32,000 bases of DNA from Geotalea daltonii FRC-32. Lineage in GTDB: Bacteria; Desulfobacterota; Desulfuromonadia; Geobacterales; Geobacteraceae. Shown here piece by piece: positions 2,229 through 28,648 of this stretch. Positions within the stretch are counted from its first letter, which is position 1. Every line of letters begins with the position of its first letter. The stretch is taken from positions 1,140,001-1,172,000 of the forward strand of contig NC_011979.1 in NCBI RefSeq assembly GCF_000022265.1. The letters run 5' to 3'. Position numbers and translations under genes: made by a program. The notes under the pieces were generated by a model, which was given only the letters and a program-made list of their open reading frames with translations, searched no databases and was not told where the DNA came from.

Positions 2229-2794
2229 AACTGGGAAGCTACCCGTGGAGTGGCCATGTAGTATTACTCGGTAAGCGGGCCATGGAAGGTCATGAGACGG
2301 ACGAGGTACTGACACGTTTTGGAAATACCAGGGCACGCGCAGTTCGTGGCTATTGGCAGTTCGTCGCCGATGGAATTACCACAGGACATCGCCAGGATCT
2401 GGTCGGGGGCGGACTTAAGCGCAGCCAGCCCGATTGCATGGAGATCAAAGAAATAGCCGCCTTTGATGAGCGAATCCTCGGCAGTGGCGGGTTTGTGGAA
2501 AAGTTGACCCAGGGGGCCAGCGTGGTGGAGAAGAATAAACCACGTCTTGCCTTGGTTGAATTGCTAGACAGAGTCTGTGCCGTGACCGGAGTGGTTGCAG
2601 ACCGAATGCAGTGTTCCGGCAAAGAGCGCACCGTAGCACGGGCAAAAGCTATCTTCTGCTACTTGGCAGTACGTGAGTATGGCTATACGGGCACAGAGGC
2701 CGGGAAGGTCGTAGGGATCGGCTCGGCAGGCGCGTCTATAGCGGCCAGACGGGGAGCGGAGTTATTGAAGAGTTACCCGGAGCTGGGGATATAA
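2229..2794 (+). pseudogene. 5'-truncated copy of the RAYT-like transposase at 6819-7787; only the C-terminal DnaA-HTH-like half is present
   Basis: Nt 2229-2850 align without gaps to 7222-7843 (offset 4993) with only a handful of mismatches by eye. The HUH and Tyr motifs of the full copy are absent. Confidence 0.85.
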
Positions 2795-2850
2795 AATTGA
2801 AGGGGAGGCAGTTAGTTGATTAGCTAACAACGTCCCTCCCAAGGACCCCT
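2229..2850 (+). repeat. About 620-bp near-identical duplicate of 7222-7843 (3' half of the family-2 RAYT-like element, including its right inverted repeat)
   Basis: Direct comparison of the two stretches. Both end with ...gcagttagttgattagctaacaacgtccctcccaaggacc. Confidence 0.9.
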
Positions 2851-2868
2851 GAAAACCACAAGTTTAAT

Positions 2869-3093
2869 GTGATTGATAAAGGGTGGATCGAAGCCAATGA
2901 GTTAAGTGTAGGTGACAAAATAATCACAAGAAATGGAAACGCATATGTTAAATCAATTATGTTTATAAAAACAGAAATACCTGTTCACGTATTTAATATT
3001 GAGGTAGAAAATAATGATAACTATCAAATTCAAGAAATGGGCGTAGTTGTAGTAGATAGATGGAATGCAGAAGCATTTTCATGTAAACCATAG
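2869..3093 (+). pseudogene. Orphan C-terminal Hint-domain (PT-HINT-like) fragment of a polymorphic toxin
   Basis: IDKGWIEANELSVGDKIITRNGNAYVKSI...VHVFNIEVENNDNYQI...GVVVV resembles the C-terminal half of Hint/intein-like domains found before toxin tips in Rhs-type proteins. It starts at a GTG directly after the truncated family-2 element, and only about 20 aa follow the Hint block. Confidence 0.5.
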
Positions 3094-3134
3094 CTTTAAT
3101 GGTCAATACTCATATACTAATAAGGAAGAATTAA

Positions 3135-3920
3135 ATGTATGACTGGTTCTATGAACAACTTAAATCAATAAAATACAAAAATTTTCATATTGTCGAACCA
3201 ATAGATCAAAAAACGATAGAAAATTTGAAAGTAAGACTTGGCGGGCTTCCAAAGACATATGCGGATTTTCTACAATCTTTTGGGAAAGCCAAGCTATATC
3301 ATGAACAGCACTACTATATCGTTGGCGTTTATCCATTGTATCCTGAATCAATAGATGAGAGCGGAGAGACGTTCTACTGCTTTGGCCATTATGATGCTGC
3401 ATCCGCTGGTTTTAAAGCAGCAGACATAAATGGGGGAAATGAAGCCGCAGTATTTGAAATGAACTCTTCTGGCAATTTAACAAGAGTAGCAAATGACTTT
3501 GCTAGTTGGTTTTTTGATAGATGCACTTTAGCGAGGAAGCGGTACTCCAAAAAAGAATGGGAAAAGATTTTAAATGAGCCCAAACCGTTCAACAATCGTG
3601 AGGTTGCCGTCGCTGAAGCCAGAAAGCTGTTTCAATGGCAGTTACTTGAGCGGACGCCGCAAGGCACCTTTCGGTTCCGCATATACAATAACTCCAAAAC
3701 AGTTCTGCCATTTTTGACAGTAGGAATTCGACATAATGAGAATAAGTTCGAAGGGGGAATATGGATCCCGGTAAGGCATGTTACTCCTGGACAGGTTAGA
3801 GATGTTGAAGCGAAGCCTTATCCTCACATTCCTATTGAGGAGCAAATTCCGTTTTCTATGCCTGATCCCACTCCTGAAGATAGAGCGATGTACTGGGAGT
3901 TCAGGAAAGCAGATCGTTAA
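3135..3920 (+). CDS. SMI1/KNR4 (SUKH-1) family immunity-type protein with an extra C-terminal domain
   Basis: The N-terminal pattern IDQKTIENLKVRLGGLPKTYADFLQSFGKAKLY is the classic SUKH/SMI1-KNR4 signature. An aaggaag RBS precedes the ATG. The gene lies immediately downstream of the toxin fragment. Confidence 0.7.
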   Translation: MYDWFYEQLKSIKYKNFHIVEPIDQKTIENLKVRLGGLPKTYADFLQSFGKAKLYHEQHYYIVGVYPLYPESIDESGETFYCFGHYDAASAGFKAADINGGNEAAVFEMNSSGNLTRVANDFASWFFDRCTLARKRYSKKEWEKILNEPKPFNNREVAVAEARKLFQWQLLERTPQGTFRFRIYNNSKTVLPFLTVGIRHNENKFEGGIWIPVRHVTPGQVRDVEAKPYPHIPIEEQIPFSMPDPTPEDRAMYWEFRKADR

Positions 3921-4035: not shown

Positions 4036-4130
4036 GGCCAACCGTAGGTGTCAGGGCCAACCGTAGGTGTCAGGCTTGACATTCGGACATTTGGCCAACC
4101 GTAGGTGTCAGGCTTGACATTCGGACATTT
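4036..4130 (+). repeat. REP-like family-1 repeats: 2.5 tandem copies of the 38-bp unit ggccaaccGTAGgtgtcaggcttgacattcggacattt
   Basis: A half unit lies at 4036-4054 and full units at 4055-4092 and 4093-4130. Each carries GTAG (4044, 4063, 4101) directly 5' of a small hairpin TGTCA-ggct-TGACA. Confidence 0.9.
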
Positions 4131-4147
4131 TGATATATTGTTTCCCC

Positions 4148-5098
4148 ATGGCCCGTAAACCTCGCATACATTACCCCGGCGCTGTCTACCACGTTATTCT
4201 GCGTGGCAATGCCGGCGAACCACTCTTTTTCAAGGATCGTGACCGATTTCGTTTCTATCTGCACATGCAGGAAGTAATAGAACGATTTCGTTGCCGGATT
4301 CACGGATTTTGCTGTATGACTAACCATGTCCATCTGATTTTGCAGGTGGAAGAGATTCCCCTCTCGCGTATCATGCAGAGTCTGTCGCTTAAATACACCA
4401 GATGGATCAATTACACCCGCCGGCGCACCGGGCATCTCTTCCAGGGACGCTACAAGGCAATCATGTTGGATGCTGACGCTTACCTGCTCGAACTCGTCCG
4501 TTATGTCCATCTCAACCCCGTGCGGGCCGGAATGACAGAATGCCCTGAAGGCTACCGCTGGAGCGGTCATAATGCGTATCTCGGCAAGGAGATGCTCCCG
4601 TGGCTGACGACCGAATGGGTACTTGCCCTGTTCTCGGGGGAAATCAACGCGGCCATCCAGCATTATCGGCAGTTTCTTTTAGATGGCATTGCCGAGGGAA
4701 GAAGAAATGAATTCCATAGTGGCACATGCGAGGGACGGATTCTTGGTGATGATTGTTTCGCAGATAAAGCGCTGACAAGGGCGAACCAGCATTGGCGGCG
4801 TGAATGGCAACTTGACGAACTCATCGATGCCATCTGCCGTCGTTATGGAATAGCAGCGAAAGAACTCAAAGCGCCTGGAAAGAAGAGGCCATTCAGCGAG
4901 GCAAGAGCAGTTGCTGCAGTTCTTGTCCAGGAATCACCGCATCTCACCCTGACAGAACTAGGCAAGGTGCTGCAACGTGATATCACTGCCCTTGGCAAGG
5001 CAGCGCAGCGCTTGATCCGGCAGGCTGATGCTCGGCTGATAAAACTCCTTGAGGAGTTACGGGGCGAGATGGAAGAAATGTCCGAAAGTCAAGCCTGA
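4148..5098 (+). CDS. RAYT-like HUH (Y1, IS200-like) transposase fused to a DnaA-domain-IV-like HTH (paralog 1)
   Basis: The sequence MARKPRIHYPGAVYHVILRGN leads into HUH motif NHVHLIL, GHLFQGRYK and the Tyr motif RYVHLNP. The C-terminal ARAVAAVLVQESPHLTLTELGKVLQRDITALGKAAQRL resembles DnaA C-terminal domains. The last 7 codons and the stop lie inside the right inverted repeat. Confidence 0.8.
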   Translation: MARKPRIHYPGAVYHVILRGNAGEPLFFKDRDRFRFYLHMQEVIERFRCRIHGFCCMTNHVHLILQVEEIPLSRIMQSLSLKYTRWINYTRRRTGHLFQGRYKAIMLDADAYLLELVRYVHLNPVRAGMTECPEGYRWSGHNAYLGKEMLPWLTTEWVLALFSGEINAAIQHYRQFLLDGIAEGRRNEFHSGTCEGRILGDDCFADKALTRANQHWRREWQLDELIDAICRRYGIAAKELKAPGKKRPFSEARAVAAVLVQESPHLTLTELGKVLQRDITALGKAAQRLIRQADARLIKLLEELRGEMEEMSESQA

Positions 5099-5129
5099 CA
5101 CCCCATTCCGCCCTGACACCCCATTCCGC
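5076..5129 (-). repeat. Family-1 REP-like repeat in inverted orientation (right end of the RAYT-1 unit), plus two copies of an 18-bp direct repeat
   Basis: aaatgtccgaaagtcaagcctgacac (5076-5101) is the reverse complement of gtgtcaggcttgacattcggacattt (4105-4130) with one mismatch. cctgacaccccattccgc then occurs twice (5094-5111 and 5112-5129). Confidence 0.9.
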
Positions 5130-5147
5130 CCCAAATAAACCGGCCCC

Positions 5148-5870
5148 CGCACCCACGTGCAGGACGTCACCACCTTCACTTACGACGCCAACGGCAACAT
5201 GCTGACAAAGACCGAAGCTTTAATCGGCACCACCCGTTATGACAACTACGACGCCCTGGGCAACCCAGGCACCATTACCGATCCAAACGGCAATGCCACC
5301 ACCTACACCTATGACACCGCAGGCAGGGCACTATTCGTCAAAGCCCCCGGAGACATAAACCCCACCGAATACACCTATACCACCGGCGGGTGTGGCAGCT
5401 GCGGCGGATCAACCAACCGCATCGCCTCCATCATCCAGCCCGAAGGAAACCGTATCGACTATACCTATGACACCAACGGCAAACTGACCAAGATTGCCGA
5501 TAGCCAGAATAACAGCATCAACTACAGCTACGACAGCGAAGGGAACAAACTGAAAGAAGAGATCAAAGATCCGTCAGGCATCCTGCAAAAGACCATCAGC
5601 TACCAATACGACGTCATCAACCGCCTCAAGCAGATCAAAAACCCCGATGCCACCTACACCGAATTCGGCTACGACGCCCTCGGCAACCGAACCAGCAGCA
5701 AAGACCCCAAACAAAACCTGACCACCAGCCAGTACGACGCCCTGAGCCGCCTCACCGCCACCATCCAGCCCGGCAATGTCACCACCGGCTTCACTTACGA
5801 TACAAATAACAACCTGACCACCGTAACCGACGCCAACAGCAACAGCACCACCTACAAATACGACGATCTG
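5148..5870 (+). pseudogene. Rhs/YD-repeat protein fragment, copy 1; no N-terminus, Rhs core end or toxin tip
   Basis: YD repeats are present (FTYDANGNM, YDALGN, YTYDTAGR, YTYDTNGKL, YSYDSEGNKL, FGYDALGN, YKYDDL). There is no real start codon. The frame runs into a stop supplied by the following REP-like repeat (..WGQA*). Confidence 0.85.
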
Positions 5871-5882
5871 GGCAGAAGGAGC

Positions 5883-5913
5883 CTATGGGGTCAGGCTTGA
5901 CTTTCGGATATTT
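5883..5913 (+). repeat. Solo family-1 REP-like repeat, inverted relative to the copy at 5076-5103
   Basis: The reverse complement of ggggtcaggcttgactttcggatattt matches aaatgtccgaaagtcaagcctgacacccc with one substitution and a 2-nt indel. Confidence 0.85.
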
Positions 5914-5922
5914 ACGGTGATG

Positions 5923-6017
5923 GAAAATCTTAAGGGGACGTTCCTGCTTTATGAAAATCTTAAGGGGACGTTCCGAAAATCTTAAGGGGGCGTCCCTGCT
6001 TTATTGCATTAGCCAAC
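5923..6017 (+). repeat. Three direct copies of a 22-bp family-2 REP-like unit gaaaatcttaaggggacgttcc, two of them extended by tgctttat(tgcattagccaac)
   Basis: The units lie at 5923-5944, 5953-5974 and 5975-5996. The core aaggggacgtt..tgct..at resembles the left inverted repeat of the family-2 element (ctagggggacgttgcttgctaat, 6755-6778). Confidence 0.8.
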
Positions 6018-6022
6018 ATTTC

Positions 6023-6745
6023 CGCACCGACGTGCAGGATGTCACCACCTTCACCTACGACGCCAATGGCAACATGCTAACAAAAACTGAGCCTCTCATT
6101 GGCACCACCACCTACGACAATTACGATGCCCTGGGCAATCCCGGCACCATCACCGATGCCAACGGCAATGCCACCATCTATACCTATGATGCTGCCGGTC
6201 GGGTGCTGACCGTCAAGGCCCCTGGGGATACCAACTATACCGAATATATCTACACCGCCAGTGGCTGCGGCAGTTGCGGCGGGGCCACTACCCGCATCGG
6301 CACCATCATCCAGCCCGAAGGCAATCGCATCGACTATACCTATGACACCAACGGCAAACTCCAAAAAATCACCGACAGCCAGAATAACAGCATCAACTAC
6401 AGCTACGACAGCGAAGGGAACAAGCTGAAAGAAGAGATCAAAGACCCGTCAGGCATCCTGCAAAAGACCATCAGCTACCAATACGACGTCATCAACCGCC
6501 TCAAGCAGATCAAAAACCCCGATGCCACCTACACCGAATTCGGCTACGACGCCCTCGGCAACCGAACCAGCAGCAAAAACCCCAAACAAAACCTGACCAC
6601 CAGCCAGTACGACGCCCTGAGCCGCCTCACCGCCACCATCCAGCCCGGCAATGTCACCACCGGCTTCACTTACGATACAAATAACAACCTGACCACCGTA
6701 ACCGACGCCAACAGCAACAGCACCACCTACAAATACGACGATCTG
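6023..6745 (+). pseudogene. Rhs/YD-repeat protein fragment, copy 2; a duplicate of 5148-5870 at offset 875 with no indels
   Basis: It has the same reading frame and the same first (gcacc.acgtgcagga) and last (tacaaatacgacgatctg) homologous bases as copy 1. The 3' ~370 bp are almost identical and the 5' ~350 bp are clearly diverged. Confidence 0.85.
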
Positions 6746-6754
6746 AACGGGCGG

Positions 6755-6800
6755 CTAGGGGGACGTTGCTTGCTAATTAACTATTGTCACTGAGCAATAG
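6755..6800 (+). repeat. Left inverted repeat of the family-2 RAYT-like element, plus a hairpin
   Basis: ctagggggacgttgcttgctaattaactattg pairs imperfectly (about 22 of 27 by eye) with the reverse complement of 7802-7832. It is followed by the hairpin ctattg-tcactgag-caatag (6781-6800). Confidence 0.65.
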
Positions 6801-6818
6801 TTATGTTGGCTTGCGCTC

Positions 6819-7787
6819 ATGCCACGCCAACCACGTCTTGACATACCCGACGTCCTCCATCACATCATTGTTCGCGGGATCGAACGCCGTGACATTTTCG
6901 CTGAAGATGCTGACAAGGAACGTTTTGTGGCAAGCCTTTCTGCCCTGCTCACGAAAAGCGCCACCAAGTGTTATGCTTGGGCGCTCATGTCAAACCATTT
7001 ACATCTGCTTCTCATGCCGACCAGAGTTTCTCTTGCTGAAACCATGCGCCGTCTGCTGACCGATTATGCCGTTTACTTTAATCGCAAATATCAGCGCTGC
7101 GGCCATCTGTTCCAGAACCGCTACAAGTCCATACTCTGCGAGGAGGATCCTTACTTTCTCGAACTTGTGCGCTATATCCATTTGAACCCGCTACGAGCGG
7201 GCATGGTTTCCGATATGAATGAACTGGGAAGCTACCCGTGGAGTGGCCATGCAGTATTACTCGGTAAGCGGGCCATGGAAGGTCAGGAGACGGACGAGGT
7301 ACTGACACGTTTTGGAAATACCAGGGCACGCGCAGTTCGTGGCTATTGGCAGTTCGTCGCCGATGGAATTACCACAGGACATCGCCAGGATCTGGTCGGG
7401 GGCGGACTTAAGCGCAGCCAGCCCGATTGCATGGAGATCAAAGAAATAGCCGCCTTTGATGAGCGAATCCTTGGCAGTGGCGGGTTTGTGGAAAAGTTGA
7501 CCCAGGGGGCCAGCGTGGTGGAGAAGAATAAACCACGTCTTGCCTTGGTTGAATTGCTAGACAGAGTCTGTGCCGTGACCGGAGTGGTTGCAGACCGAAT
7601 GCAGTGTCCCGGCAAAGAGCGCGCCGTAGCACGGGCAAAAGCTATCTTCTGCTACTTGGCAGTACGTGAGTATGGCTATACGGGCACAGAGGCCGGGAAG
7701 GTCGTAGGGATCGGCTCGGCAGGCGCGTCTATAGCGGCCAGACGGGGAGCGGAGTTATTGAAGAGTTACCCGGAGCTGGGGATATAA
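6819..7787 (+). CDS. RAYT-like HUH (Y1, IS200-like) transposase fused to a DnaA-domain-IV-like HTH (paralog 2)
   Basis: The sequence MPRQPRLDIPDVLHHIIVRGIERRDIF leads into HUH motif NHLHLLL, GHLFQNRYK and the Tyr motif RYIHLNP. The C-terminal ARAKAIFCYLAVREYGYTGTEAGKVVGIGSAGASIAARRG is DnaA-C-like. Confidence 0.8.
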   Translation: MPRQPRLDIPDVLHHIIVRGIERRDIFAEDADKERFVASLSALLTKSATKCYAWALMSNHLHLLLMPTRVSLAETMRRLLTDYAVYFNRKYQRCGHLFQNRYKSILCEEDPYFLELVRYIHLNPLRAGMVSDMNELGSYPWSGHAVLLGKRAMEGQETDEVLTRFGNTRARAVRGYWQFVADGITTGHRQDLVGGGLKRSQPDCMEIKEIAAFDERILGSGGFVEKLTQGASVVEKNKPRLALVELLDRVCAVTGVVADRMQCPGKERAVARAKAIFCYLAVREYGYTGTEAGKVVGIGSAGASIAARRGAELLKSYPELGI

Positions 7788-7801
7788 AATTGAAGGGGAG
7801 G

Positions 7802-7832
7802 CAGTTAGTTGATTAGCTAACAACGTCCCTCC
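7802..7832 (-). repeat. Right inverted repeat of the family-2 RAYT-like element
   Basis: cagttagttgattagctaacaacgtccctcc has the reverse complement ggagggacgttgttagctaatcaactaactg, which matches the left repeat at 6757-6786 imperfectly. Confidence 0.65.
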
Positions 7833-7984
7833 CAAGGACCCTCCCAAGGACCCTCCCAAGGACCAACAACGTCCCTCCCAAGGACCCTCCCAAGGACCTC
7901 CCTCCCAAGGACCCTCCCAAGGACCCTCCCAAGGACCCTCCCAAGGACCCTCCCAAGGACCCTCCCAAGGACCCTCCCAAGGAC
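7828..7984 (+). repeat. Tandem array of the 12-bp unit cctcccaaggac: 12 units in blocks of 3+2+7, interrupted by caacaacgtc and ctc
   Basis: Units were counted by hand. The first unit is the outer end of the right inverted repeat. The paralogous copy at 2838-2850 carries a single unit. Confidence 0.95.
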
Positions 7985-8032
7985 CCCAATCAGCCACTTT
8001 CCCAAATCGGTATCAATGATTTCTCGGGATAT

Positions 8033-8190
8033 GTGTCCCCACGTTGTTAAAAATGGAATGCGGTGATCCGAATGTGAAATTAGGCTTGGCGGCTCCTCGG
8101 AAAGGCCCAGTTAGGCTTACGTCGCCGCGCCTTGCCGGGAACCGAAATCCCTCGAAATTCTGGCAGAGAACTAACCTTAGAGGGCACTAG
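8033..8190 (+). repeat. Diverged copy of MITE-like family A (see 14868-15033 and 28307-28472)
   Basis: The right half cgtcgccgcgccttgccgggaaccgaaatccctcgaaattctggcagagaactaaccttagagggcactag is roughly 80 percent identical by eye to 28408-28472. The left half is more diverged, so the left boundary is approximate. Confidence 0.6.
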
Positions 8191-8905: not shown

Positions 8906-8971
8906 GGGGGCAGTATTCGACCCACCCCTTTCTTTTTTGTTGTTGATGCAATATAGTTCCCGATGCCAGCA

Positions 8972-9037
8972 GTCTGTCGGACTTAGGAATGAATCTGCTG
9001 CTATCCTCTTGCTGCGATCCCCTAAGTCACTCCTAGC
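8972..9037 (+). repeat. Internally deleted copy of MITE-like family B (full copy at 9760-9925)
   Basis: agtctgtcggacttag-gaatgaatctgctgc ... gcgatcccctaagtcactcctag shares both termini and the first internal block with the full element. Confidence 0.7.
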
Positions 9038-9055: not shown

Positions 9056-9757
9056 ATGAGCCGAACCCTTATTAGTATGATTGAGCAGATGGAGCCGGGA
9101 GTGGTAATCCTCAACGATGATCTGACGGTCTCTTCCGTGAGCAGCATGATTTTCCTGATTTTCGGTCATATCCCTCGCGAGCGGGTCTTTGCTGGAGACC
9201 TCCTGGGCATTCACAGTGAGGAGGCACGCGCCAAGGTAAAGGAGATGTTGCGGCTGGCACGCCAGGCACAGAGGCATATTCCGCTCTCGCTCAAATTTGT
9301 CACCAGTGAAGGCCAGGACCGATACCTGCTGATCAAGCTGATAACTATTGTAGGCCGTGAATCCTCCGACGACAAGACCTGCGCCCTGTTTTACGATATA
9401 ACCCCCTTCACCCTGGCTGAGCGCAAACTTACCAGGGTGCCGGTCACTTCCCGTGGTGAGATCCATCTCCTCAAGCCGGAAGAGATCGTTTACCTCAAGG
9501 CTGACAATATCTATTCCATGATCTGTACCGAATCGGGCGAATACCATAGCGACCTGTCCATCGGCGCCATTGAAAAACGCCTTCCCGGCGAAATGTTTTT
9601 CCGCATTCACCGCAGTTTCCTTGTCAATATCACCAGAATCCGCAAGGTTCATCGCGAGCGCCACGAATGCACTGTGGAAGCCGGAGGAGGCGAGGTGCGC
9701 CTGCCGGTCAGCCGCGACAAGCTGCAAGGTTTTCTGGTGGAAATGGGTCTTAAATAA
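9056..9757 (+). CDS. rcoM: RcoM-type single-component regulator: N-terminal PAS-like sensor plus C-terminal LytTR DNA-binding domain
   Basis: The LytTR signature is IHLLKPEEIVYLKADNIYSMI...FFRIHRSFLVNITRI. The N-terminal ~115 aa are PAS-like. The gene sits immediately upstream of, and in the same direction as, cooS, the arrangement described for RcoM. Confidence 0.75.
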   Translation: MSRTLISMIEQMEPGVVILNDDLTVSSVSSMIFLIFGHIPRERVFAGDLLGIHSEEARAKVKEMLRLARQAQRHIPLSLKFVTSEGQDRYLLIKLITIVGRESSDDKTCALFYDITPFTLAERKLTRVPVTSRGEIHLLKPEEIVYLKADNIYSMICTESGEYHSDLSIGAIEKRLPGEMFFRIHRSFLVNITRIRKVHRERHECTVEAGGGEVRLPVSRDKLQGFLVEMGLK

Positions 9758-9759
9758 CC

Positions 9760-9925
9760 CTAGGAGTCTGTCGGACTTAGAATGAATCGGCTGCGAAAAT
9801 GGCAAATCGGTCCGGATCTCCGTAAATTTTCGACAAATAGTCCACTATTCGCTCTCAAATTTCCAAATATCCGTCCTCGATTTTCCATTCTCTCGCTTCG
9901 ATCCCTAAGTCCGACAGACTCCTAG
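9760..9925. mobile_element. MITE-like element family B, 166 bp, with perfect 21-bp terminal inverted repeats
   Basis: ctaggagtctgtcggacttag (9760-9780) is the exact reverse complement of ctaagtccgacagactcctag (9905-9925). There is no coding capacity. Confidence 0.85.
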
Positions 9926-9933
9926 CCCGTACC

Positions 9934-14709: not shown

Positions 14710-14867
14710 TTTTCCAATAAAGCCTCCCCCCTGACTTTGTCAGCCTGTTTCAGGCAGCCTTTCCCCCCCTCAATTAACATTCCTCATTAAATACTTATGG
14801 CACTCAAAATGCTATAACGGGTCATTCGGAATTGTTTTTGCCAGAAAAATGGTCAAGAAACAAATAG

Positions 14868-15033
14868 CTAGTGTCCCGTGCGGTTAGTTCACCGCAAGAA
14901 TTCTGAGGGATTTTGGTTACTGGCAAGGCGCGGCGACGCAGGCCTAGCAGGGCCTAAGCCAAGGAGATGCAACGCAGCCAGGGGCCAAAAGAGCCAGAAT
15001 TGTAAGGAATGATTTAACCGATCGGGACACTAG
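14868..15033 (-). mobile_element. MITE-like element family A, 166 bp, with CTAG at both ends
   Basis: ctagtgtcccgtgcgg...ccgatcgggacactag is the near-identical reverse complement of 28307-28472. Confidence 0.85.
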
Positions 15034-15152
15034 TTACTTCGACAGGCGTTGCCGCTTGATGAATTGATTCGGCGTATTAACGGGTCACCAGGATTTTCAT
15101 GCTATTTAACGTAAATGTGAAAGAGGTTAAATTTCTCGAAGGAGGAACGCAG

Positions 15153-18100
15153 ATGGCAAAGCGAACAGCCGTAAAGGCCCGGGCATGGTTCGGGCAGCAG
15201 ATCGCACTCCTGTGCCTATTGCTCATATCAGTGGGCAGTGCCTGGGGCGCAGAGATGGTAACCAACGGTGCTTTCAGTGGCAGCGCCGGCTGGACATTCA
15301 GTACCGCCACCTATGACAGCACCACAGGCAGAAGTGCTAATGGTTCAGCCAAACTGTACATTGCGGCAAGAAACACAGCCACCGCCGGTACAGTGACTCA
15401 GTCGGTTTCCATTCCTGCCGGGTCAGTCATCAATGCTGTGGCCTTGTATTCCCAGTTGACCACCAATTATGAAACTGCAGGCGACAACATATCGGTAGAC
15501 CTGCGCTATGAAGATGCCACCACCGTCAACATTTTCAGTTCCGGTGAGCTTACCAACAGCTCTTGGACTGTGCGCAATGGTGCCGGTGTCACCTTAGCGC
15601 AGAATGTCAATCAGATTATCATCACCATGAACACCAAGGCGGGCAATAATGCGGCAGCAAACGCTTCCCTGTGGGTGGACGACCTGTCCATCAGCTACAC
15701 AGCGTCAAACAACGGTACTACTCCCGGCGCAATGACGTCCTTCGGCGCCACGGATAAACAGATCAGCATCCAAGTCGCCTTCACAGGCGATGATGATAAC
15801 GATAACAGTTGTGTCATTGCCTACGGCACTACTCCTGGTAACTACAACTTTACGGCGCCGGCGCCGGTGAAAGGTGCAGGTATTTACACCACCACCGTCA
15901 GCGGCCTTACCCCCAATACCCCCTATTATTTCCAAGCCACTTTTACAGATCCAGACAACACTCCCGGCACGGTGACCGGTACATTCTCCACGACCCCGCC
16001 TCTTTCGGACCCTCTGCTGCACAACAGCATCAACCTTGGCGCCAAGTACTGGTCGGCCAGCAGCGGTTGGGGTGTTGCCGGTGGTCAGTATGGAGAGTTC
16101 ACCTGTACCACCTGTCATAATCGAAACACCGGTAACATAAAAAGGGTAGTGGGTTCGATACCTGCCACCATCGGTACGGCAGTAGTGAAACCTGTAACAT
16201 ACCGCAACGTCACCGCCTTCGGTAACGATGCCGGCGGGCATACCACTTCGCAGCGCATCTGTGAAGTCTGCCACACCCAGACTACTGAGCATAAGTATAA
16301 CCAGACAACCGGCGACCTGAATCATAAGAACGCCAATTTAACGGACTGTACCTCCTGTCATGCCCACAACAAGTCCTTTGGTGCATCTTGTAACAGTTGC
16401 CACGGATATCCCCCCATCAACGCCACTCTTGGTACTGACGGTCTGGCCTCGCCTGCAACAGGCGTGCTGGTCTCCGGACAGGCTGGCGCCCATGCCACCC
16501 ACGTCAATGTCCGCGGAATGACCTGCGAAACCTGTCACCAGGGCTATACTCAAAACCCGATGGGGAATCAGACCCTGGAATTTGGTTTCAATATCAACGA
16601 AGGAACCATATCCGGATTCAAAGGCACCTTCAACGGCGGCAGTTTTGCCAGTAAAACGCCATATTCCCCTTACAGCAGCAACTCAACCTATACCGGCACG
16701 ACAGTCAACATGGCAACAGGCAACAACAATACCTGTTCCAACCTCTACTGTCACGGCGGATATGCAGGCAGCAACGGCTCCCTCACGGTTCCCTCCTGGA
16801 CCGCCGGTGCAACTGCCAAGGGTTGTGGTGCCTGCCACGGCGTCAGCCAGGCAACTCCTCCCACCTCCGGCAACCATGTCCGCCATACCGGAACGGCAAC
16901 GGGCAACATGGGCATTGCTTGTAGTGATTGTCACGGGACGCTTCCTGCCAATAATGCACATGTTAATGGCAATGTGGTAACAAGCCTGAATCCCGCATCG
17001 AAACTGCGGGCAAATGCCACTTACAAGGGCTTTGCCAACCAGTCTTCCGTAGCGCTCAGCTATGGCGCCTGTGCTGTTTACTGCCACAGCACGGTTCAGA
17101 ACTCGACGGCAACGGCGGTGGCGACTCCGACAGTGACGCCAGTATGGGGAGGCGCACCAATCGTCTCCTGCGACACCTCGGCATGCCACGGCAATCCACC
17201 GGCCAATGCCAACCATTCCACCCACGTAAATGCAGGCTACGAGTGTATTGTCTGTCATAATGCAGCGGGCAGGGACACTGCCAAGCATGCCGACTACAAC
17301 ATCGATGTTACCTTCAGCGGCGTTGCCGGTTCCGGCACCTACAGCCAATCCCCCAATGCCCCCGGCAACGGGTTCGGCACTTGTTCGGCGACGTACTGCC
17401 ACAACGGAGCAGCCAGTGCTCCCTCATGGAATGGCTCTTCCCTGCCGACTGATTGTACAGGATGCCATGGTAATGAAGTGACCGCGGCAACCAAGTTGAG
17501 TGGAGCTCACAATGCCCATCTGAACAATGCAAGCCAGGGGGGCGTCTTTACATGTAGTTCCTGCCACGCCCCGACTATTACCAATCCCAACAATAGAACG
17601 ATTACGAACAGCATTTCCCATGTCAACGGCATGCTCAACTACTCCGGTCTCTATGCGGGCAGGAACGCGACCTGTAGCAACATCTACTGCCACAGCACCG
17701 GCAAGGGCACCTTCGTCAATCCACCAACATGGGCCAGCGGCACAACCTTGGGTTGTAACGGCTGCCACGGCACCGGCGGCAATACAAGTGGTATGCCTTC
17801 ACCGGACGCCGTCGGCGTCAACAGCCACACCAAGCACCTGCCGACCCAGGACACCACCAAGTGCGTCTACTGTCACCGCACAACGGTCAACGGCACCAAC
17901 GCCATCATAACCGGCAGTCAGCACATCAATGCTGCACGCGATGTCCGCTTCAGCAAGCCCAATGCCTTCACCAACAACTCTGGTGCATATAATGCCGGCA
18001 ACAGGACCTGTTCGACCTCCTACTGCCACGGCACCGCAGCATCCGATGCCTGGGGTACCGCCGGTCCGCTGGCATGTAACAAGTGTCACGCCGGCAGTAA

Positions 18101-21100
18101 CGTCCTGCCCGGTGCCCATGGCATTCACTACAACACGGCAACTGTCGTCACCGGTCTCTACGGAGCGGCTCCCGGCAGCTCCAGCCAGAGTGCCACCGCC
18201 TACCAGTTTTCATGTTCAGCCTGCCACGGCACCGATGCCACTAAGCATGCCAACTACCCAGTGGCCAATGCATCCGATGCCACCATCTTCTTCGGATTCT
18301 CCTCCGCCGGCCGTGGACAGAACGCCACTAACGCCTATGTTGCCCAGGCAACCGGCTCCACCGACGCGGCTGGGTTCCAGTGGACCACCGGCGGTAACGG
18401 CAACTGTAGCGCCACCTACTGCCACAGCAACGCCCGCGGCAGTAACGGCGTAAGCGCATCGGTCAACTGGGGTATCACCGCCAGGGATGCGAGCTGCGGA
18501 ACCTGCCATGGCAACTCAACCACCACCATCGCCGGTAGCAACCCCGCCAGCACGCCCAGCATGCTCTCCGGTGCCCATAAGGCCCACATCTCTACAGTCT
18601 CTACCGGTGGCAGTTTTGCCTGTACCGACTGCCACGCTGACACCCTGAGCGGGAATACCACCATTGCCGCCAATGCTTATAACAAGCACGTCAACAAGTT
18701 CATCAACTACTCCGGCCGCTATGCCGGGAAGAACAAGACCTGTTCTACCTTCTATTGCCACAGTAACGGCAAGGGGGGTGCACCTGTAACTGCGCTGCCT
18801 GCCTGGACCAGCGGCACGACCCTTGGCTGTAACGGCTGCCACGGCTCCACCGGCAACGCCAGCGGTATGCCCACACCCGATGCCGTCGGCGTCAACAGCC
18901 ACACCAAGCACCTGCCGACCCAGGACACCACCAAGTGCGTCTACTGCCACAGGACCACCGTCAACGGCACCAACGCCATCATAACCGGCAGCCAGCACAT
19001 CAATGCTGCACGTGATGTCCGCTTCAGCAAGCCCAATGCCTTCACTAACAACTCTGGTGCATATAATGCCGGCAACAGGACCTGTTCGACCTCCTACTGC
19101 CACGGCACCGCAGCATCCGATGCCTGGGGTACCGCCGGTCCGCTTGCATGTAACAAGTGTCACGCTGGCAGTAACGTCCTGCCCGGTGCCCACGGCATTC
19201 ACTACAACACGGCAACTGTCGTCACCGGTCTCTACGGAGCGGCTCCCGGCAGCTCCAGCCAGAGTGCCACCGCCTACCAGTTTTCATGTTCAGCCTGCCA
19301 CGGCACCGATGCCGCTAAGCATGCCAACTACCCAGTGGCCGATGCATCCGATGCCACCATCTTCTTCGGATTCTCCTCCGCTGGCCGTGGCCAGAACGCC
19401 ACTAACGCCTATGTTGCCCAGGCAACCGGCTCCACCGACGCGGCTGGGTTCCAGTGGACCACCGGCGGTAACGGCAACTGTAGCGCCACCTACTGCCACA
19501 GCAACGCCCGCGGCAGCAACGGCGTAAGCGCATCCGTCAACTGGGGTATCACCGCCAGGGATGCGAGCTGCGGAACCTGCCATGGCAACTCAACCACCAC
19601 CATCGCCGGCAGCAACCCTGCCAGCACGCCCAATATGCTCTCCGGTGCCCACAAGGCCCACATAGTAGGAGTATCTACCGGCGGCGGCTTCGGTTGTGTT
19701 GACTGCCATGCAACTACGGTCAGCAGCAACACAACGATCGGGACAAGTCGCTACAATAAACATGTCAACAAGTTCGTTGATTACTCCGGCCTCTATGCAG
19801 GCAAGAACAAAACCTGCAGCAATATCTACTGCCACAGCACAGGCAGAGGCACCTTTGTCAATCCGCCCACCTGGGCAAGCGGCACAACCCTCGACTGTAG
19901 CGGCTGCCACGGCTCTACCTCCGCCAACCTCACCTCGGGCAGCCATAATGCCCACTTGGTCGCCGGTGCCACCTGCCAGAACTGCCACTGGAACACCACC
20001 CAGGCCAATGGTACAATTGTAGTCGTCGCCGAACACATCAGCAGAACAGTCGGCGTCAATCAAGGCAGTACCTTTAAATCGGCCGCCGTCAGCTTCACCG
20101 GTACCACGAGCTGTTCGGCAATTTCCTGTCACAGCAACGGCACCTCCGGCGGGGCAGCTGCAGCAACCTGGGGCGGTACCCTCAAATGTGACGGCTGCCA
20201 TCCCAATCTCTCCGCCGCCCACACGGTTCACGCCAACCTGAACCTGAGCACCGGCGTCACCTTCTACAACTATACCGCCATCAAGTCCACCGGTTCCGAG
20301 GCGGTCAACGGCGTCAAGTACGGCTTCGGCTGCGGTACCTGTCATCCACTGGTGGAATCGACCTACCATATGGACGGCAGCGTCGAGGTACAACTTGATC
20401 CGGCCACCGTCGGCGCCGGCGCCCTGCGCCAGAAAAACGGCGTCGGCGCAATAATGAACGGTGACAAGAGCTGTGATATGGTCTACTGCCACAGTGACGG
20501 CAAAAACACCATGGTTGCATCCGGCAACGGCCATGCACCTGTCTGGACGACCACCTTTGCAGCCCTCGGTGGCGACCGTTGTGCCAAGTGCCACGGCAAC
20601 TCCCCGCAGACCTCAGCCCACGACGCACACCAGGTCGGCATTCACTACAATAACATCTACAACGGGACGTCCGGCAAGCTGGCTGCTGGTGCAAGTGGCT
20701 CTTCCAGCCATGGTGTAGCAGGCCAGTCAACCACCATCACCTGTAACATCTGTCACAACAAAACTATGACTGCCGCGGCAAATGACCAGAACGCCCTCTG
20801 TAACACCTGCCACACCAAGGGTGTCAATGGCGCATTGGTTAAGGGTAATGCCAAAATTGCCGATTTCTCCTTCCACGTCAACGGCAAGAAAGAAATCGCC
20901 TTCCTGCCTTCGCTCAAGGTCGTCTCGAAGGCACAGCTCAGACAGACCAGCTTCTCCAACTACTCCGGTCTCTGGGTACGTAACGGCGGCAACTACAAGA
21001 ACGGCGTTAACGCCTTCGACACCGCCAAAACCGCTTTTGCGGACAACATGTGGAACTCGACGGCAGGTACCTGCTCCAACATCTCCTGTCACAACCTGAG

Positions 21101-21167
21101 AGTAGGCGAGGCCGTCAACTGGACCGACACCACCATCAGTTGTAATTCCTGTCACAGCAAGTTGTAA
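15153..21167 (+). CDS. Secreted giant multihaem c-type cytochrome with repeated CX4CH...CXXCH modules (Geobacter-type repeat family)
   Basis: The ATG at 15153 has a ggagg RBS. The signal peptide is ...LLCLLLISVGSAWG/AE. A CBM-like beta-sandwich (NGAFSGSAGW...) and an FN3-like domain (...SGLTPNTPYYFQATF) follow. Manual count then gives 30 CXXCH and 14 CX3-4CH motifs, many followed by an H-x2-H. Confidence 0.9.
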   Translation: MAKRTAVKARAWFGQQIALLCLLLISVGSAWGAEMVTNGAFSGSAGWTFSTATYDSTTGRSANGSAKLYIAARNTATAGTVTQSVSIPAGSVINAVALYSQLTTNYETAGDNISVDLRYEDATTVNIFSSGELTNSSWTVRNGAGVTLAQNVNQIIITMNTKAGNNAAANASLWVDDLSISYTASNNGTTPGAMTSFGATDKQISIQVAFTGDDDNDNSCVIAYGTTPGNYNFTAPAPVKGAGIYTTTVSGLTPNTPYYFQATFTDPDNTPGTVTGTFSTTPPLSDPLLHNSINLGAKYWSASSGWGVAGGQYGEFTCTTCHNRNTGNIKRVVGSIPATIGTAVVKPVTYRNVTAFGNDAGGHTTSQRICEVCHTQTTEHKYNQTTGDLNHKNANLTDCTSCHAHNKSFGASCNSCHGYPPINATLGTDGLASPATGVLVSGQAGAHATHVNVRGMTCETCHQGYTQNPMGNQTLEFGFNINEGTISGFKGTFNGGSFASKTPYSPYSSNSTYTGTTVNMATGNNNTCSNLYCHGGYAGSNGSLTVPSWTAGATAKGCGACHGVSQATPPTSGNHVRHTGTATGNMGIACSDCHGTLPANNAHVNGNVVTSLNPASKLRANATYKGFANQSSVALSYGACAVYCHSTVQNSTATAVATPTVTPVWGGAPIVSCDTSACHGNPPANANHSTHVNAGYECIVCHNAAGRDTAKHADYNIDVTFSGVAGSGTYSQSPNAPGNGFGTCSATYCHNGAASAPSWNGSSLPTDCTGCHGNEVTAATKLSGAHNAHLNNASQGGVFTCSSCHAPTITNPNNRTITNSISHVNGMLNYSGLYAGRNATCSNIYCHSTGKGTFVNPPTWASGTTLGCNGCHGTGGNTSGMPSPDAVGVNSHTKHLPTQDTTKCVYCHRTTVNGTNAIITGSQHINAARDVRFSKPNAFTNNSGAYNAGNRTCSTSYCHGTAASDAWGTAGPLACNKCHAGSNVLPGAHGIHYNTATVVTGLYGAAPGSSSQSATAYQFSCSACHGTDATKHANYPVANASDATIFFGFSSAGRGQNATNAYVAQATGSTDAAGFQWTTGGNGNCSATYCHSNARGSNGVSASVNWGITARDASCGTCHGNSTTTIAGSNPASTPSMLSGAHKAHISTVSTGGSFACTDCHADTLSGNTTIAANAYNKHVNKFINYSGRYAGKNKTCSTFYCHSNGKGGAPVTALPAWTSGTTLGCNGCHGSTGNASGMPTPDAVGVNSHTKHLPTQDTTKCVYCHRTTVNGTNAIITGSQHINAARDVRFSKPNAFTNNSGAYNAGNRTCSTSYCHGTAASDAWGTAGPLACNKCHAGSNVLPGAHGIHYNTATVVTGLYGAAPGSSSQSATAYQFSCSACHGTDAAKHANYPVADASDATIFFGFSSAGRGQNATNAYVAQATGSTDAAGFQWTTGGNGNCSATYCHSNARGSNGVSASVNWGITARDASCGTCHGNSTTTIAGSNPASTPNMLSGAHKAHIVGVSTGGGFGCVDCHATTVSSNTTIGTSRYNKHVNKFVDYSGLYAGKNKTCSNIYCHSTGRGTFVNPPTWASGTTLDCSGCHGSTSANLTSGSHNAHLVAGATCQNCHWNTTQANGTIVVVAEHISRTVGVNQGSTFKSAAVSFTGTTSCSAISCHSNGTSGGAAAATWGGTLKCDGCHPNLSAAHTVHANLNLSTGVTFYNYTAIKSTGSEAVNGVKYGFGCGTCHPLVESTYHMDGSVEVQLDPATVGAGALRQKNGVGAIMNGDKSCDMVYCHSDGKNTMVASGNGHAPVWTTTFAALGGDRCAKCHGNSPQTSAHDAHQVGIHYNNIYNGTSGKLAAGASGSSSHGVAGQSTTITCNICHNKTMTAAANDQNALCNTCHTKGVNGALVKGNAKIADFSFHVNGKKEIAFLPSLKVVSKAQLRQTSFSNYSGLWVRNGGNYKNGVNAFDTAKTAFADNMWNSTAGTCSNISCHNLRVGEAVNWTDTTISCNSCHSKL
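17790..19663 (+). repeat. In-frame tandem duplication inside the cytochrome gene: 17790-18589 is repeated at 18864-19663 (period 1074 bp = 358 codons)
   Basis: The two 800-bp blocks differ at only a few positions by eye. The protein block GMP(S/T)PDAVGVNSHTKHLPTQ...SGAHKAHI occurs twice. Confidence 0.95.
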
Positions 21168-28180: not shown

Positions 28181-28310
28181 TAGCTGGTTTCCATCCGGAA
28201 AGGGTTCTTTTCTGCCCTGGCGGCGTCAATCTGCGGGCTTACTTGTGCGACGTACCGATGTACGTCTCCGCGCAAGTCCCTGATTTCCTCGCTTTCCGGA
28301 TGGAACCTAG
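28181..28310. mobile_element. MITE-like element family C, about 130 bp and highly structured
   Basis: The terminal inverted repeats are ggtttccatccggaaag and ctttccggatggaacc. Internal hairpins are gacgtac-cgat-gtacgtc and acttgtgcg...cgcgcaagt. Its right CTAG is shared with the next element. Confidence 0.6.
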
Positions 28311-28472
28311 TATCCCGATCGGTTAATTCATTCCTTACAATTCTGGCTCTTTTGGCCCCTGGCTGCGTTGCGTCTCCTTGGCTTAGGCCCTGCTAGGCCT
28401 GCGTCGCCGCGCCTTGCCAGGAACCAAAATCCCTCAGAATTCTTGCGGTGAACTAACCGCACGGGACACTAG
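28307..28472 (+). mobile_element. MITE-like element family A, 166 bp, with CTAG at both ends
   Basis: ctagtatcccgatcgg...ccgcacgggacactag is the reverse complement of 14868-15033 with a few mismatches. Confidence 0.85.
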
Positions 28473-28648
28473 CTGGAAAGGAGAAAGAAAAAATGTCGGG
28501 ATGTTTAATCATTGTAAAAAAATCCGACGAAAAAACTGGGCTCTTTGGTCATTACCGGTACTGATTGTATCGAAAAATTAACCCCTTACGCGCGGGCATA
28601 AAATTTGTATTATTTAACCTGGAGCAGATTGGAAAAAATGGAGGCCCT

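Follow-up and report, generated by a model that had tools for sequence, protein, structure and literature searches.

The inverted pair of 27-nt repeats that encloses an Rhs/YD gene fragment in Geotalea daltonii FRC-32 is probably made up of the right end of one transposase-bearing element, RAYT-1, and the solo left end of a co-oriented sister element, and the Rhs piece between them would be dead DNA and not cargo. On the best reading, the locus, found in the 32,000-nucleotide stretch of DNA analysed here (the window), is a degraded orphan-Rhs array that lies in a strain-variable island and has been colonised by co-oriented RAYT-type elements. It is an ordinary sort of genome debris.

The 27-nt repeat is present in four copies in the window, at positions 4066, 4104, 5076 (inverted) and 5887, while none is expected by chance. 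A window scan placed its core, GTCAGGCTTGACWTTCGGAYATTT, at 4069-4092(+), 4107-4130(+), 5076-5099(-) and 5890-5913(+), and the same core had zero matches across 100 shuffles. In the repeat search, 5076-5102 and 5887-5913 form a gapless 27-nt inverted repeat in which 25 of 27 positions are complementary. The original prediction had described these two copies as reverse complements differing by one substitution and a 2-nt indel; they are indeed reverse complements, and the differences are equally described by two substitutions without any indel. Both arms have the CTTTCGG variant, and CATTCGG is found in the two copies to the left of the transposase gene, as had been noted.

RAYT-1 is a 999-bp element (4104..5102, + strand) in which 27-nt terminal inverted repeats enclose a Y1/HUH transposase gene (4148-5098, + strand). 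The gene encodes a 316-aa protein with a C-terminal DnaA-type HTH domain, which matches the Pfam families Y1_Tnp (PF01797, 5.6e-15) and Bac_DnaA_C (1.3e-08), and in the alignment it retains intact HUH (NHVHL) and Tyr (GRYKA) motifs. The best NCBIfam match of the RAYT-type proteins is NF047646, 'REP-associated tyrosine transposase', with scores of 69.5 and 63.1 bits for the two RAYT proteins of the window, under the 80-bit equivalog cut-off, and relatives are named 'REP element-mobilizing transposase RayT' in databases. A protein look-up found no exact matches to RAYT-1, RAYT-2 or a further RAYT-2 copy (P0246). At its left side, RAYT-1 is preceded by an array (4036..4130, + strand) of units that join an 11-nt flank to the terminal repeat; there are two complete units of 38 nt and a partial one of 19 nt, and 4104-4130 is the functional left repeat. 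A TTGACA -35 box lies within the left repeat, with TATTGT 16 nt downstream. The right terminal repeat (5076..5102, - strand) is the left arm of the inverted pair; it contains the stop codon of the transposase ORF (TGA at 5096-5098) and its outer tip, 5102, is turned towards the Rhs fragment.

The boundaries of this element are well defined. The window segment 4104-5102 aligns to positions 5621-6625 of contig L003 (86%) and 3232-4236 of contig L004 (79%), and in both cases the homology ends precisely at 4104 and 5102, i.e. at the repeat tips, with unrelated flanks. The boundary at 5102 bears out the claim that the left arm doubles as the right end of RAYT-1. A second copy, 99% identical, was found in the G. 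daltonii FRC-32 genome (4,304,501 bp); it has a nonsense mutation (P0241) and was also seen as a 1005-bp unitig corresponding to window positions 4101-5105. Conserved boundaries in unrelated contexts, together with near-identical genome copies, show that RAYT-1 is an autonomous IS-like element.

The right arm of the pair (5882..5913, + strand) is a solo terminal repeat of left-end type with no transposase gene behind it, and its outer tip, 5887, points at the Rhs fragment. It matches the left ends of elements in other Geobacterales (L028, L030 and L039) at 31 of 32 positions, against only 25 of 27 for the RAYT-1 right end, and in those contigs the RAYT start codon comes next. In Geobacter sp. 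UBA4057, where at least five RAYT copies are present, the left ends are identical. From these matches, 5887-5913 is identified as the putative leftover left end of an element of a sister sub-family, co-oriented with RAYT-1, whose body has been lost. The CATTCGG and CTTTCGG variants were also considered as markers of left and right ends. They behave as such in the window, L003 and L004, but CTTTCGG is carried by most left ends in other genomes, and the marker was hence dropped in favour of the 31/32 left-end match.

Since the left and right ends of such elements are mutual inverted repeats, co-oriented elements in tandem automatically give an inverted pair around the intervening DNA. Moreover, both outer tips (5102 and 5887) face the fragment, so that it lies outside both elements. 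The elements would have arrived by single-strand Y1 transposition. In IS608, Y1 single-strand transposition is strand-biased, and such a bias would account for the co-orientation of all the element copies found here. Deletions adjacent to the insertions may then have taken away the remaining Rhs gene, together with the second element's body.

The original prediction had interpreted the pair as a REPIN-like doublet, that is, one non-autonomous element in which the Rhs spacer of about 750 bp is cargo moved in trans by RAYT-1. The arms are inverted, are complementary at 25 of 27 positions and pair with each other when the interval is folded at minimum free energy, and a seemingly intact RAYT gene adjoins. 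Nevertheless, this is the most improbable of the readings weighed here, and it is already contradicted by the geometry, as the tips face inwards and leave the interval outside the ends. The right arm seems to come from another sub-family (31/32 against 25/27). REPINs are hairpins of about 89 nt with a spacing of 34-110 bp in SBW25 (PMC3337134), far below the 784 nt that separate the two arms here, and the interior of the interval 5070-5920 has no hairpin character (z -1.2). The repeats are also weak palindromes, with stems of 4-5 bp, MFE values of -2.1 to -4.7 kcal/mol and z-scores of -0.5 to -1.4 relative to shuffled sequence, and the transposase gene occurs in several copies. Finally, a paralogous fragment described below lies between other repeats, which are in direct orientation, and Rhs DNA was found in none of the 36 loci recovered by a repeat-core scan of a species-representative genome collection that did not return the source genome. 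A cargo unit consisting of the ends and the Rhs piece was not found at a second site in the window or in the 36 repeat loci, the sole other copy of the piece being the differently flanked paralogue at 6023-6757.

With the REP/REPIN-RAYT system (Nunvar 2010; Bertels & Rainey 2011; PMC3116915, PMC3337134, PMC5581495), the elements share a Y1/HUH transposase homologue, short inverted repeats that flank the gene and solo repeat copies away from it. They differ in having a longer protein (about 320 aa instead of about 150-170 aa) to which a DnaA-type HTH domain is added, a multi-copy gene instead of a single-copy RAYT with far more repeats than genes, and poorly palindromic, low-copy repeats for which no hairpin doublets of about 100 nt were seen; unlike in a REPIN, the pair encloses coding-derived DNA. 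The IS200/IS605 family (e.g. IS608) resembles them in its Y1 transposase, multiple near-identical copies, boundaries conserved across contexts, no evident target-site duplication and co-oriented copies. The classical ends of that family are, however, non-identical and bear subterminal hairpins, whereas here there are 27-nt terminal inverted repeats, often with tandem duplications of flank and tip at the outer ends. Composite transposons and MITEs with a passenger likewise have an inverted repeat pair bracketing a DNA segment, but the outer tips of a mobilisable unit point away from the passenger and not, as here, towards it. For annotation, the ~320-aa 'RayT' proteins with Y1_Tnp and DnaA-HTH domains in Geobacterales act as insertion sequences of the ordinary kind, multi-copy and with terminal inverted repeats of 27 nt, unlike domesticated single-copy RAYTs with REPIN populations. 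In the species-representative scan, core matches numbered at most six per genome and mostly adjoined a RAYT gene. Under the preferred reading, genome copies of GTCAGGCTTGACNTTCGGA and GGGGACGTT-type ends are predicted to number tens at most and to be mostly the ends of RAYT genes, and no further right-end/left-end pairs around duplicated DNA are predicted in the chromosome.

Rhs/YD fragment 1 (5142..5876, + strand) is an internal shell segment corresponding to residues 519-763 of a 1325-aa Rhs protein encoded on contig L005, with 60-61% identity (blastp/tblastn) and an RHS_repeat match of 5.3e-39 in Pfam. It lacks the N-terminus, the C-terminal end of the core and the toxin, and an in-frame TAA is located at 5136-5138. 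Exact enclosure of the Rhs segment by the repeats, as proposed, did not hold, as spacers are found on both sides of the Rhs-derived DNA delimited by tblastn. On the left, about 39 nt (5103-5141) separate the repeat from Rhs DNA and comprise an 18-nt unit in two copies, then CCAAATAA with the in-frame TAA, then ACC; the two copies of the unit extend over 5095..5130 (+ strand), each made of 8 nt of repeat tip and 10 nt of flank (CTGACACCCCATTCCGCC). On the right, the spacer is 10 nt (5877-5886). The downstream repeat does provide the stop codon of the fragment, as had been proposed: the ORF 5157-5900 ends in ...WGQA*, with its TGA at 5898-5900 within the repeat.

Fragment 2 (6023..6757, + strand), a paralogue situated 875 bp downstream, corresponds to residues 521-764 of the L005 Rhs protein (RHS_repeat 1.5e-44, Pfam), and the paralogous core in fragment 1 is 5147-5870. 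No other Rhs DNA was detected by tblastn in the 32-kb window. Both fragments end at residue 763/764 of 1325, and the C-terminal end of the core, the toxin and a cognate immunity gene are absent. The identity between them is mosaic, with 93% over 5147-5203, 77% over 5204-5501 and 99% over 5502-5870. For the first 360 nt, a dS of about 1.0 and a dN/dS of about 0.10 were obtained; this divergence under purifying selection indicates that at least part of each fragment comes from a functional gene. Their end points nearly coincide (to within about 8 nt at the left edge and about 3 nt at the right), although sequence comparison revealed no homology between their flanks. The non-homologous edges amount to 39 nt by the RAYT-1 tip and 17 nt by the family-2 array. 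On both sides of fragment 2 there are family-2 ends, in direct orientation and both of left-end type.

Within the preferred reading, that of dead Rhs DNA between co-oriented elements, the two fragments would derive by duplication from one ancestral fragment that was already truncated, and gene conversion by a functional but diverged rhs gene would later have replaced some 300 bp inside one of them. Against such a patch, its left homology arm measures just 57 nt (93% identity, Fisher p 0.006). The spacer is not present twice, and a simple tandem duplication comprising fragment and spacer was hence rejected; the shared end points in spite of unrelated flanks have no clean explanation by simple tandem duplication, which speaks against the best reading. 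A protein search with fragment 1 returned matches of at most 434 aa and at most 67% identity and is uninformative on a full-length donor rhs gene. A metagenome scan with fragment 2 yielded distant Rhs genes only (at most 41% identity) and no sister strain with the locus.

The common end points could instead reflect an exchange between elements, in which the Y1 transposase cuts two co-oriented neighbours, the first at its right tip and the second at its left tip, frees the intervening DNA in circular form and re-inserts it at another right-end/left-end junction. Pieces of Rhs core would then be shuffled cassettes, and tandem RAYT elements of Geobacterales a cassette-exchange device for Rhs shell modules of about 735 bp with fixed end points. 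The order right end, segment, left end on one strand would, by analogy with IS200/IS605 chemistry, mirror an IS608-type excision substrate. Near-identical end points within unrelated flanks could be explained in this way even for diverged pieces, the purifying selection places part of each piece in a functional gene, and the tandem amplification of junction sequences at many element tips marks the tips as active sites. However, homology between the fragments does not extend from tip to tip, given the unrelated edges of 39 and 17 nt, and fragment 2 lies between two left-end-type repeats and not between a right and a left end. There is no second instance, there are no junction reads, and the Rhs pieces carry no toxin or immunity function on which selection could act. 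We therefore consider such an exchange highly improbable; if true, transposase-driven exchange between elements would be a new route for the shuffling of toxin-gene modules between loci.

The second element of the window, RAYT-2 (6758..7830, + strand), has the terminal inverted repeats GGGGGACGTTGCTTGCTAATTAAC and GTTGATTAGCTAACAACGTCCCT around a Y1 transposase gene (6819-7787, + strand). Its 322-aa product shares 33% protein identity with that of RAYT-1, matches PF01797 (1.3e-12) and shows the motifs NHLHL and NRYKS in the alignment. A homologue of the element with matching ends is located at 14378-15442 of L005, and at least three RAYT-2 copies are present in the source genome. A second, 5'-truncated copy with its right end lies at 2229..2848 (+ strand) and is 99.2% identical to 7222-7841. 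Upstream of fragment 2, a family-2-like left-end array (5923..6004, + strand) contains 2.7 copies of a 30-nt unit of flank plus repeat, oriented as the RAYT-2 left end. Over 7831..7987 (+ strand), the RAYT-2 right tip plus flank is repeated as about 13 tandem copies of the 12-nt unit CCCTCCCAAGGA. Position 7987 is also the boundary of the conserved chromosome. In L001, a close strain, 99.7% identity is found from 7987 rightwards and three copies of the 12-nt unit are present, and left of the boundary there is different DNA with an integrase and just a solo family-2 right end. Comparison with this strain indicates that the region left of 7987 is a strain-variable island.

Element ends meet cut Rhs genes in related contigs too. 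In L005, an Rhs fragment breaks off at a RAYT-2-like left end after about residue 659, and a family-1-like left end in two copies, with a 5' RAYT stub, is joined to Rhs fragments. The orphan rhs gene in L006 has a solo family-2 left end at its 5' cut. The presence of RAYT-type ends at cut ends of Rhs sequence is thus confirmed in the window, L005 and L006, while the proposal that they mobilise or carry toxin-gene pieces is not upheld. The family-2 ends in L005 and L006 cut Rhs sequence elsewhere, an outcome of a sort that the original prediction had itself named as refuting it. No shared target motif was found at the Rhs/element junctions of the window, L005 and L006.

It is also conceivable, though unlikely, that the element ends have nothing to do with the shape of the fragments, the Rhs remnant having been truncated earlier and the elements inserted later in a non-essential region. 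The 39 nt of DNA, neither Rhs nor element, between the RAYT-1 tip and Rhs sequence fit this, as does the location in a strain-variable island; in addition, the RAYT-1 and RAYT-2 copies are 99% identical and hence recent, while the fragments are in part far more diverged. Against it, only 0-10 nt separate the element tips on the right side from the final Rhs codons of each fragment, and in L005 and L006 element ends are again at Rhs cut points. Taken together, these positions are better explained by insertion plus adjacent deletion than by coincidence.

RAYT elements recur at Rhs loci of the lineage (the window, L003, L005 and L006), a recurrence that may point to something beyond passive accumulation, although L005 and L006 were retrieved by a search with the Rhs fragment. 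A general association was examined and rejected, as Rhs DNA occurs in 0/36 repeat loci and a RAYT gene in 1/80 Rhs loci.

The fragments are of the orphan Rhs module type, judging from their RHS/YD repeats, 5' truncation, missing start signal and nearby toxin/immunity remnants. Orphan rhs/cdiA modules (Poole 2011, PMC3150448; Zhang 2012, PMC3482391) similarly have 5'-truncated cores without start signals, adjoining toxin and immunity remnants, paralogous mosaic fragments and disruption by mobile elements; the breakage of orphan toxin modules by IS elements is known (PMC3150448). The present pieces differ in being internal shell segments without the C-terminal end of the core, the toxin or an immunity gene, and in that the main rhs gene is absent from the 32-kb window. 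On this reading, the locus is one more case of insertion-sequence debris in a polymorphic-toxin 'graveyard' and has little functional weight. Rfam and tRNA scans of the window gave no matches. Among the remnants, upstream of the Rhs fragments, a PT-HINT fragment (2869-3093, + strand; Pfam PT-HINT 2.2e-06) is abutted by the truncated RAYT-2 copy, and a SUKH-1 immunity-like gene follows at 3135-3920 (+ strand; Pfam SMI1_KNR4 1.6e-04, below the curated cut-off). The GC content at 2801-3600 is 32-40%.

Four copies of the core (GTCAGGCTTGACWTTCGGAYATTT) of the family-1 repeat, the terminal repeat of the RAYT-1 transposase element, lie in the 32-kb window, at 4069-4092(+), 4107-4130(+), 5076-5099(-) and 5890-5913(+), whereas 100 shuffles gave no match. 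A repeat search extended the last two copies to a gapless 27-nt inverted pair (5076-5102 and 5887-5913), which is 25/27 complementary with a spacing of 784 nt and, as originally predicted, lies on either side of Rhs fragment 1. The differences between the arms, first described as one substitution and a 2-nt indel, are equally well described as two substitutions without an indel. Both arms indeed carry the CTTTCGG variant, with CATTCGG in each of the copies to the left of the transposase gene. The right repeat also supplies a stop codon as predicted: ORF 5157-5900 ends in WGQA, with its TGA inside the repeat. The repeats do not enclose the Rhs segment exactly, since the Rhs-derived DNA spans 5142-5876, leaving gaps of 39 nt on the left and 10 nt on the right. 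The left gap is composed of two copies of an 18-nt unit, followed by CCAAATAA with an in-frame TAA, and then ACC.

The RAYT-1 gene (4148-5098) encodes a 316-aa protein with Y1_Tnp (5.6e-15) and DnaA-type HTH (1.3e-08) Pfam domains, whose HUH and Tyr motifs are intact in the alignment. Its top NCBIfam match, 'REP-associated tyrosine transposase', scored 69.5 bits, under the 80-bit cut-off. The nearest relatives are found on contigs L003 and L004 (protein identity 86% and 78%, DNA alignment 86% and 79%, respectively). DNA homology to both begins exactly at window 4104 and ends exactly at 5102 (GGTGTCAGG... to ...CCTGACACC), while the element flanks show no kinship among the window, L003 and L004. 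These alignments define a 999-bp element bounded by 27-nt terminal inverted repeats, with 5076-5102 as its right end, which bears out the role first proposed for the left arm. A second RAYT-1 copy in the FRC-32 genome (P0241) carries a nonsense mutation; it was also recovered as a 1005-bp unitig corresponding to window 4101-5105 (99% identity). The RAYT-2 gene (6819-7787), whose product is 33% identical to RAYT-1, has at least three copies, and in Geobacter sp. UBA4057 at least five RAYT copies, located at contig ends, share identical left ends. Units of the RAYT-1 and RAYT-2 type are IS-like and multi-copy, unlike domesticated RAYTs, which are single-copy. At 4114-4141, a perfect -35 box (TTGACA) lies inside the RAYT-1 left terminal repeat and is followed 16 nt downstream by TATTGT, just 5' of the transposase start; the A/T difference that separates left (CATTCGG) from right (CTTTCGG) repeats in the window, L003 and L004 falls within this box.

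For the right arm, searching one representative genome per species for the 19-nt core returned 36 loci, about two thirds of them from Geobacterales or related Deltaproteobacteria. At many of these, the motif CCT(A/C)TGGGGTCAGGCTTGACTTTCGGA(C/T)ATTT lies 13-20 nt 5' of a RAYT start codon. The solo copy at 5882-5913 (CCTATGGGGTCAGGCTTGACTTTCGGATATTT) matches such left ends in loci L028, L030 and L039 at 31/32 positions, versus only 25/27 for the RAYT-1 right end. The DNA behind it diverges immediately, with no RAYT gene following. The best reading of the solo repeat is as the left end of another element, from a sister sub-family, whose body was lost.

The outer tips of the two arms, 5102 (RAYT-1 right end) and 5887 (solo left end), both point at fragment 1. 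Therefore, fragment 1 is inter-element DNA, external to both elements. As the two ends of an element are mutual inverted repeats, tandem co-oriented elements necessarily yield an inverted pair. Element copies in the window, L003, and contigs L005 and L006 all have the same orientation as the Rhs sequences. Y1 single-strand transposition is strand-biased, as in IS608, and such co-orientation would be its expected outcome. The pair had been proposed to be a REPIN-like doublet with Rhs cargo. REPINs are hairpins of about 89 nt made of two palindromic REPs 34-110 bp apart, and are served by a short, single-copy RAYT (PMC3337134), whereas the present arms are 784 nt apart and the transposase is long and multi-copy. 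Single family-1 repeats have low folding stability (-2.1 to -4.7 kcal/mol; z -0.5 to -1.4), and beyond its two arms the 851-nt interval shows no hairpin character (z -1.2). With its tips facing inward and its right arm from a sister sub-family as well, the pair gives the doublet reading no support. It consists of insertion-sequence ends bordering orphan Rhs debris, an already-known kind of feature, though previously undescribed in this lineage. A literature search found no paper that ties Rhs fragments to RAYTs or REPINs.

The window's only Rhs-like DNA is fragment 1 (5142-5876) and its paralogue, fragment 2 (6023-6757). Their alignments with the 1325-aa Rhs protein of L005 cover residues 519-763 and 521-764, respectively (60-61% identity). 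Both are internal pieces of the shell that lack the N-terminus, the core end and a toxin. Together with a PT-HINT stub and a SUKH-1-like immunity gene located 5' in low-GC DNA, they are the remnant of a polymorphic-toxin array. Fragment 2 has a family-2-like (RAYT-2-type) left-end array of 2.7 copies on its left (5923-6004), oriented as the RAYT-2 left end that begins at 6758 on its right. The fragment flanks have nothing in common beyond 5147-5870 and 6022-6745; despite this, the end points coincide to about 8 nt (left) and 3 nt (right). A simple tandem duplication was rejected because the spacer is not repeated. Identity between the fragments is 93% over 5147-5203, 77% over 5204-5501 and 99% over 5502-5870. 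The first 360 nt have a dS of about 1.0 and a dN/dS of about 0.10, so this divergence accumulated in functional genes and does not reflect the decay of a duplicate that was already dead. The simplest explanation would be duplication of one fragment, truncated beforehand, then conversion of a patch of about 300 bp inside one copy by a diverged rhs gene, and later flank turnover through element insertion, excision and deletion. The left arm of the patch (5147-5203) diverged less than the patch (Fisher p 0.006). A transposase-driven exchange of inter-element segments has a small probability.

L005 contains a full rhs gene followed by orphan fragments, one of which is interrupted after about residue 659 by a RAYT-2-like element with matching terminal repeats. 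At L005 9700-10000 and 13300-13600, 5'-truncated Rhs continues in-line from a family-1-like left end that retains about 170 nt of RAYT gene; the two fusions are 92% identical. L006 has a solo family-2 left end (26/27 versus that of the window) where an orphan rhs is cut on its 5' side, about 40 nt from the window's position. A left end followed directly by truncated Rhs in the same orientation is thus present at three loci (L005, L006 and window fragment 2), and the L005 and L006 comparisons show that element ends cut Rhs genes at several differing positions. The association is not general: Rhs DNA was found at 0/36 repeat loci, and a RAYT gene at just 1/80 metagenomic Rhs loci.

Contig L001, from a very close relative, is 99.7% identical over 1.8 kb from window 7987 rightwards. 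Left of this boundary (L001 1502), L001 has a solo family-2 right end only, three 12-nt junction units, a terminator, AT-rich DNA and an integrase gene, while the window holds the RAYT-2 element and Rhs fragments. Since L001 differs there, all DNA left of 7987, repeat pair included, belongs to a strain-variable island. The 12-nt unit (CCCTCCCAAGGA) is present in about 13 copies at the RAYT-2 right end, versus three in L001. RAYT-type element ends often bear such tandem duplications, in which each unit joins a few bases of flank to the terminal repeat or just its tip. They occur in the window (4036-4130, 5095-5130, 5923-6004 and 7831-7987), in L004 (3205-3235) and L005 (13290-13312), and at loci L008, L009, L013, L016, L020, L021, L025, L028, L031, L036 and L039. 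Tip duplications were found in 14/38 repeat copies versus 2/1900 flank-shuffled controls, which suggests recurrent cutting and rejoining, or slippage, at element tips. To our knowledge, tandem duplication at RAYT-type tips has not been described.

Elsewhere in the window, a 168-nt repeat has two full copies, 14866-15033(-) and 28307-28474(+), 98% identical, and a partial copy at 8103-8190(+). It folds as a single long hairpin (-74.9 kcal/mol, z -5.5), has no Rfam match, and resembles a MITE or REPIN-type element more closely than the family-1 pair does. Its inverted full copies flank 13.3 kb including the gene of a 2022-aa multihaem c-type cytochrome (15099-21167), which has 13 CxxxxCH/CxxCH domains and internal repeats of about 1.07 kb (92% identical). 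An IS256-family (Transposase_mut) gene at 25-1000, extending past the window start, is probably frameshifted, with two overlapping ORFs (25-510 and 353-1000). Between this remnant and a truncated RAYT-2 copy, low-GC DNA encodes a 254-aa cysteine-rich ORF (1367-2131) without Pfam or NCBIfam match. Finally, a short repeat (CTAGGAGTCTGTCGGACTTAG) at 8965-8990, 9760-9780 and 9901-9926 has inverted copies on either side of a LytTR regulator gene (9056-9757).
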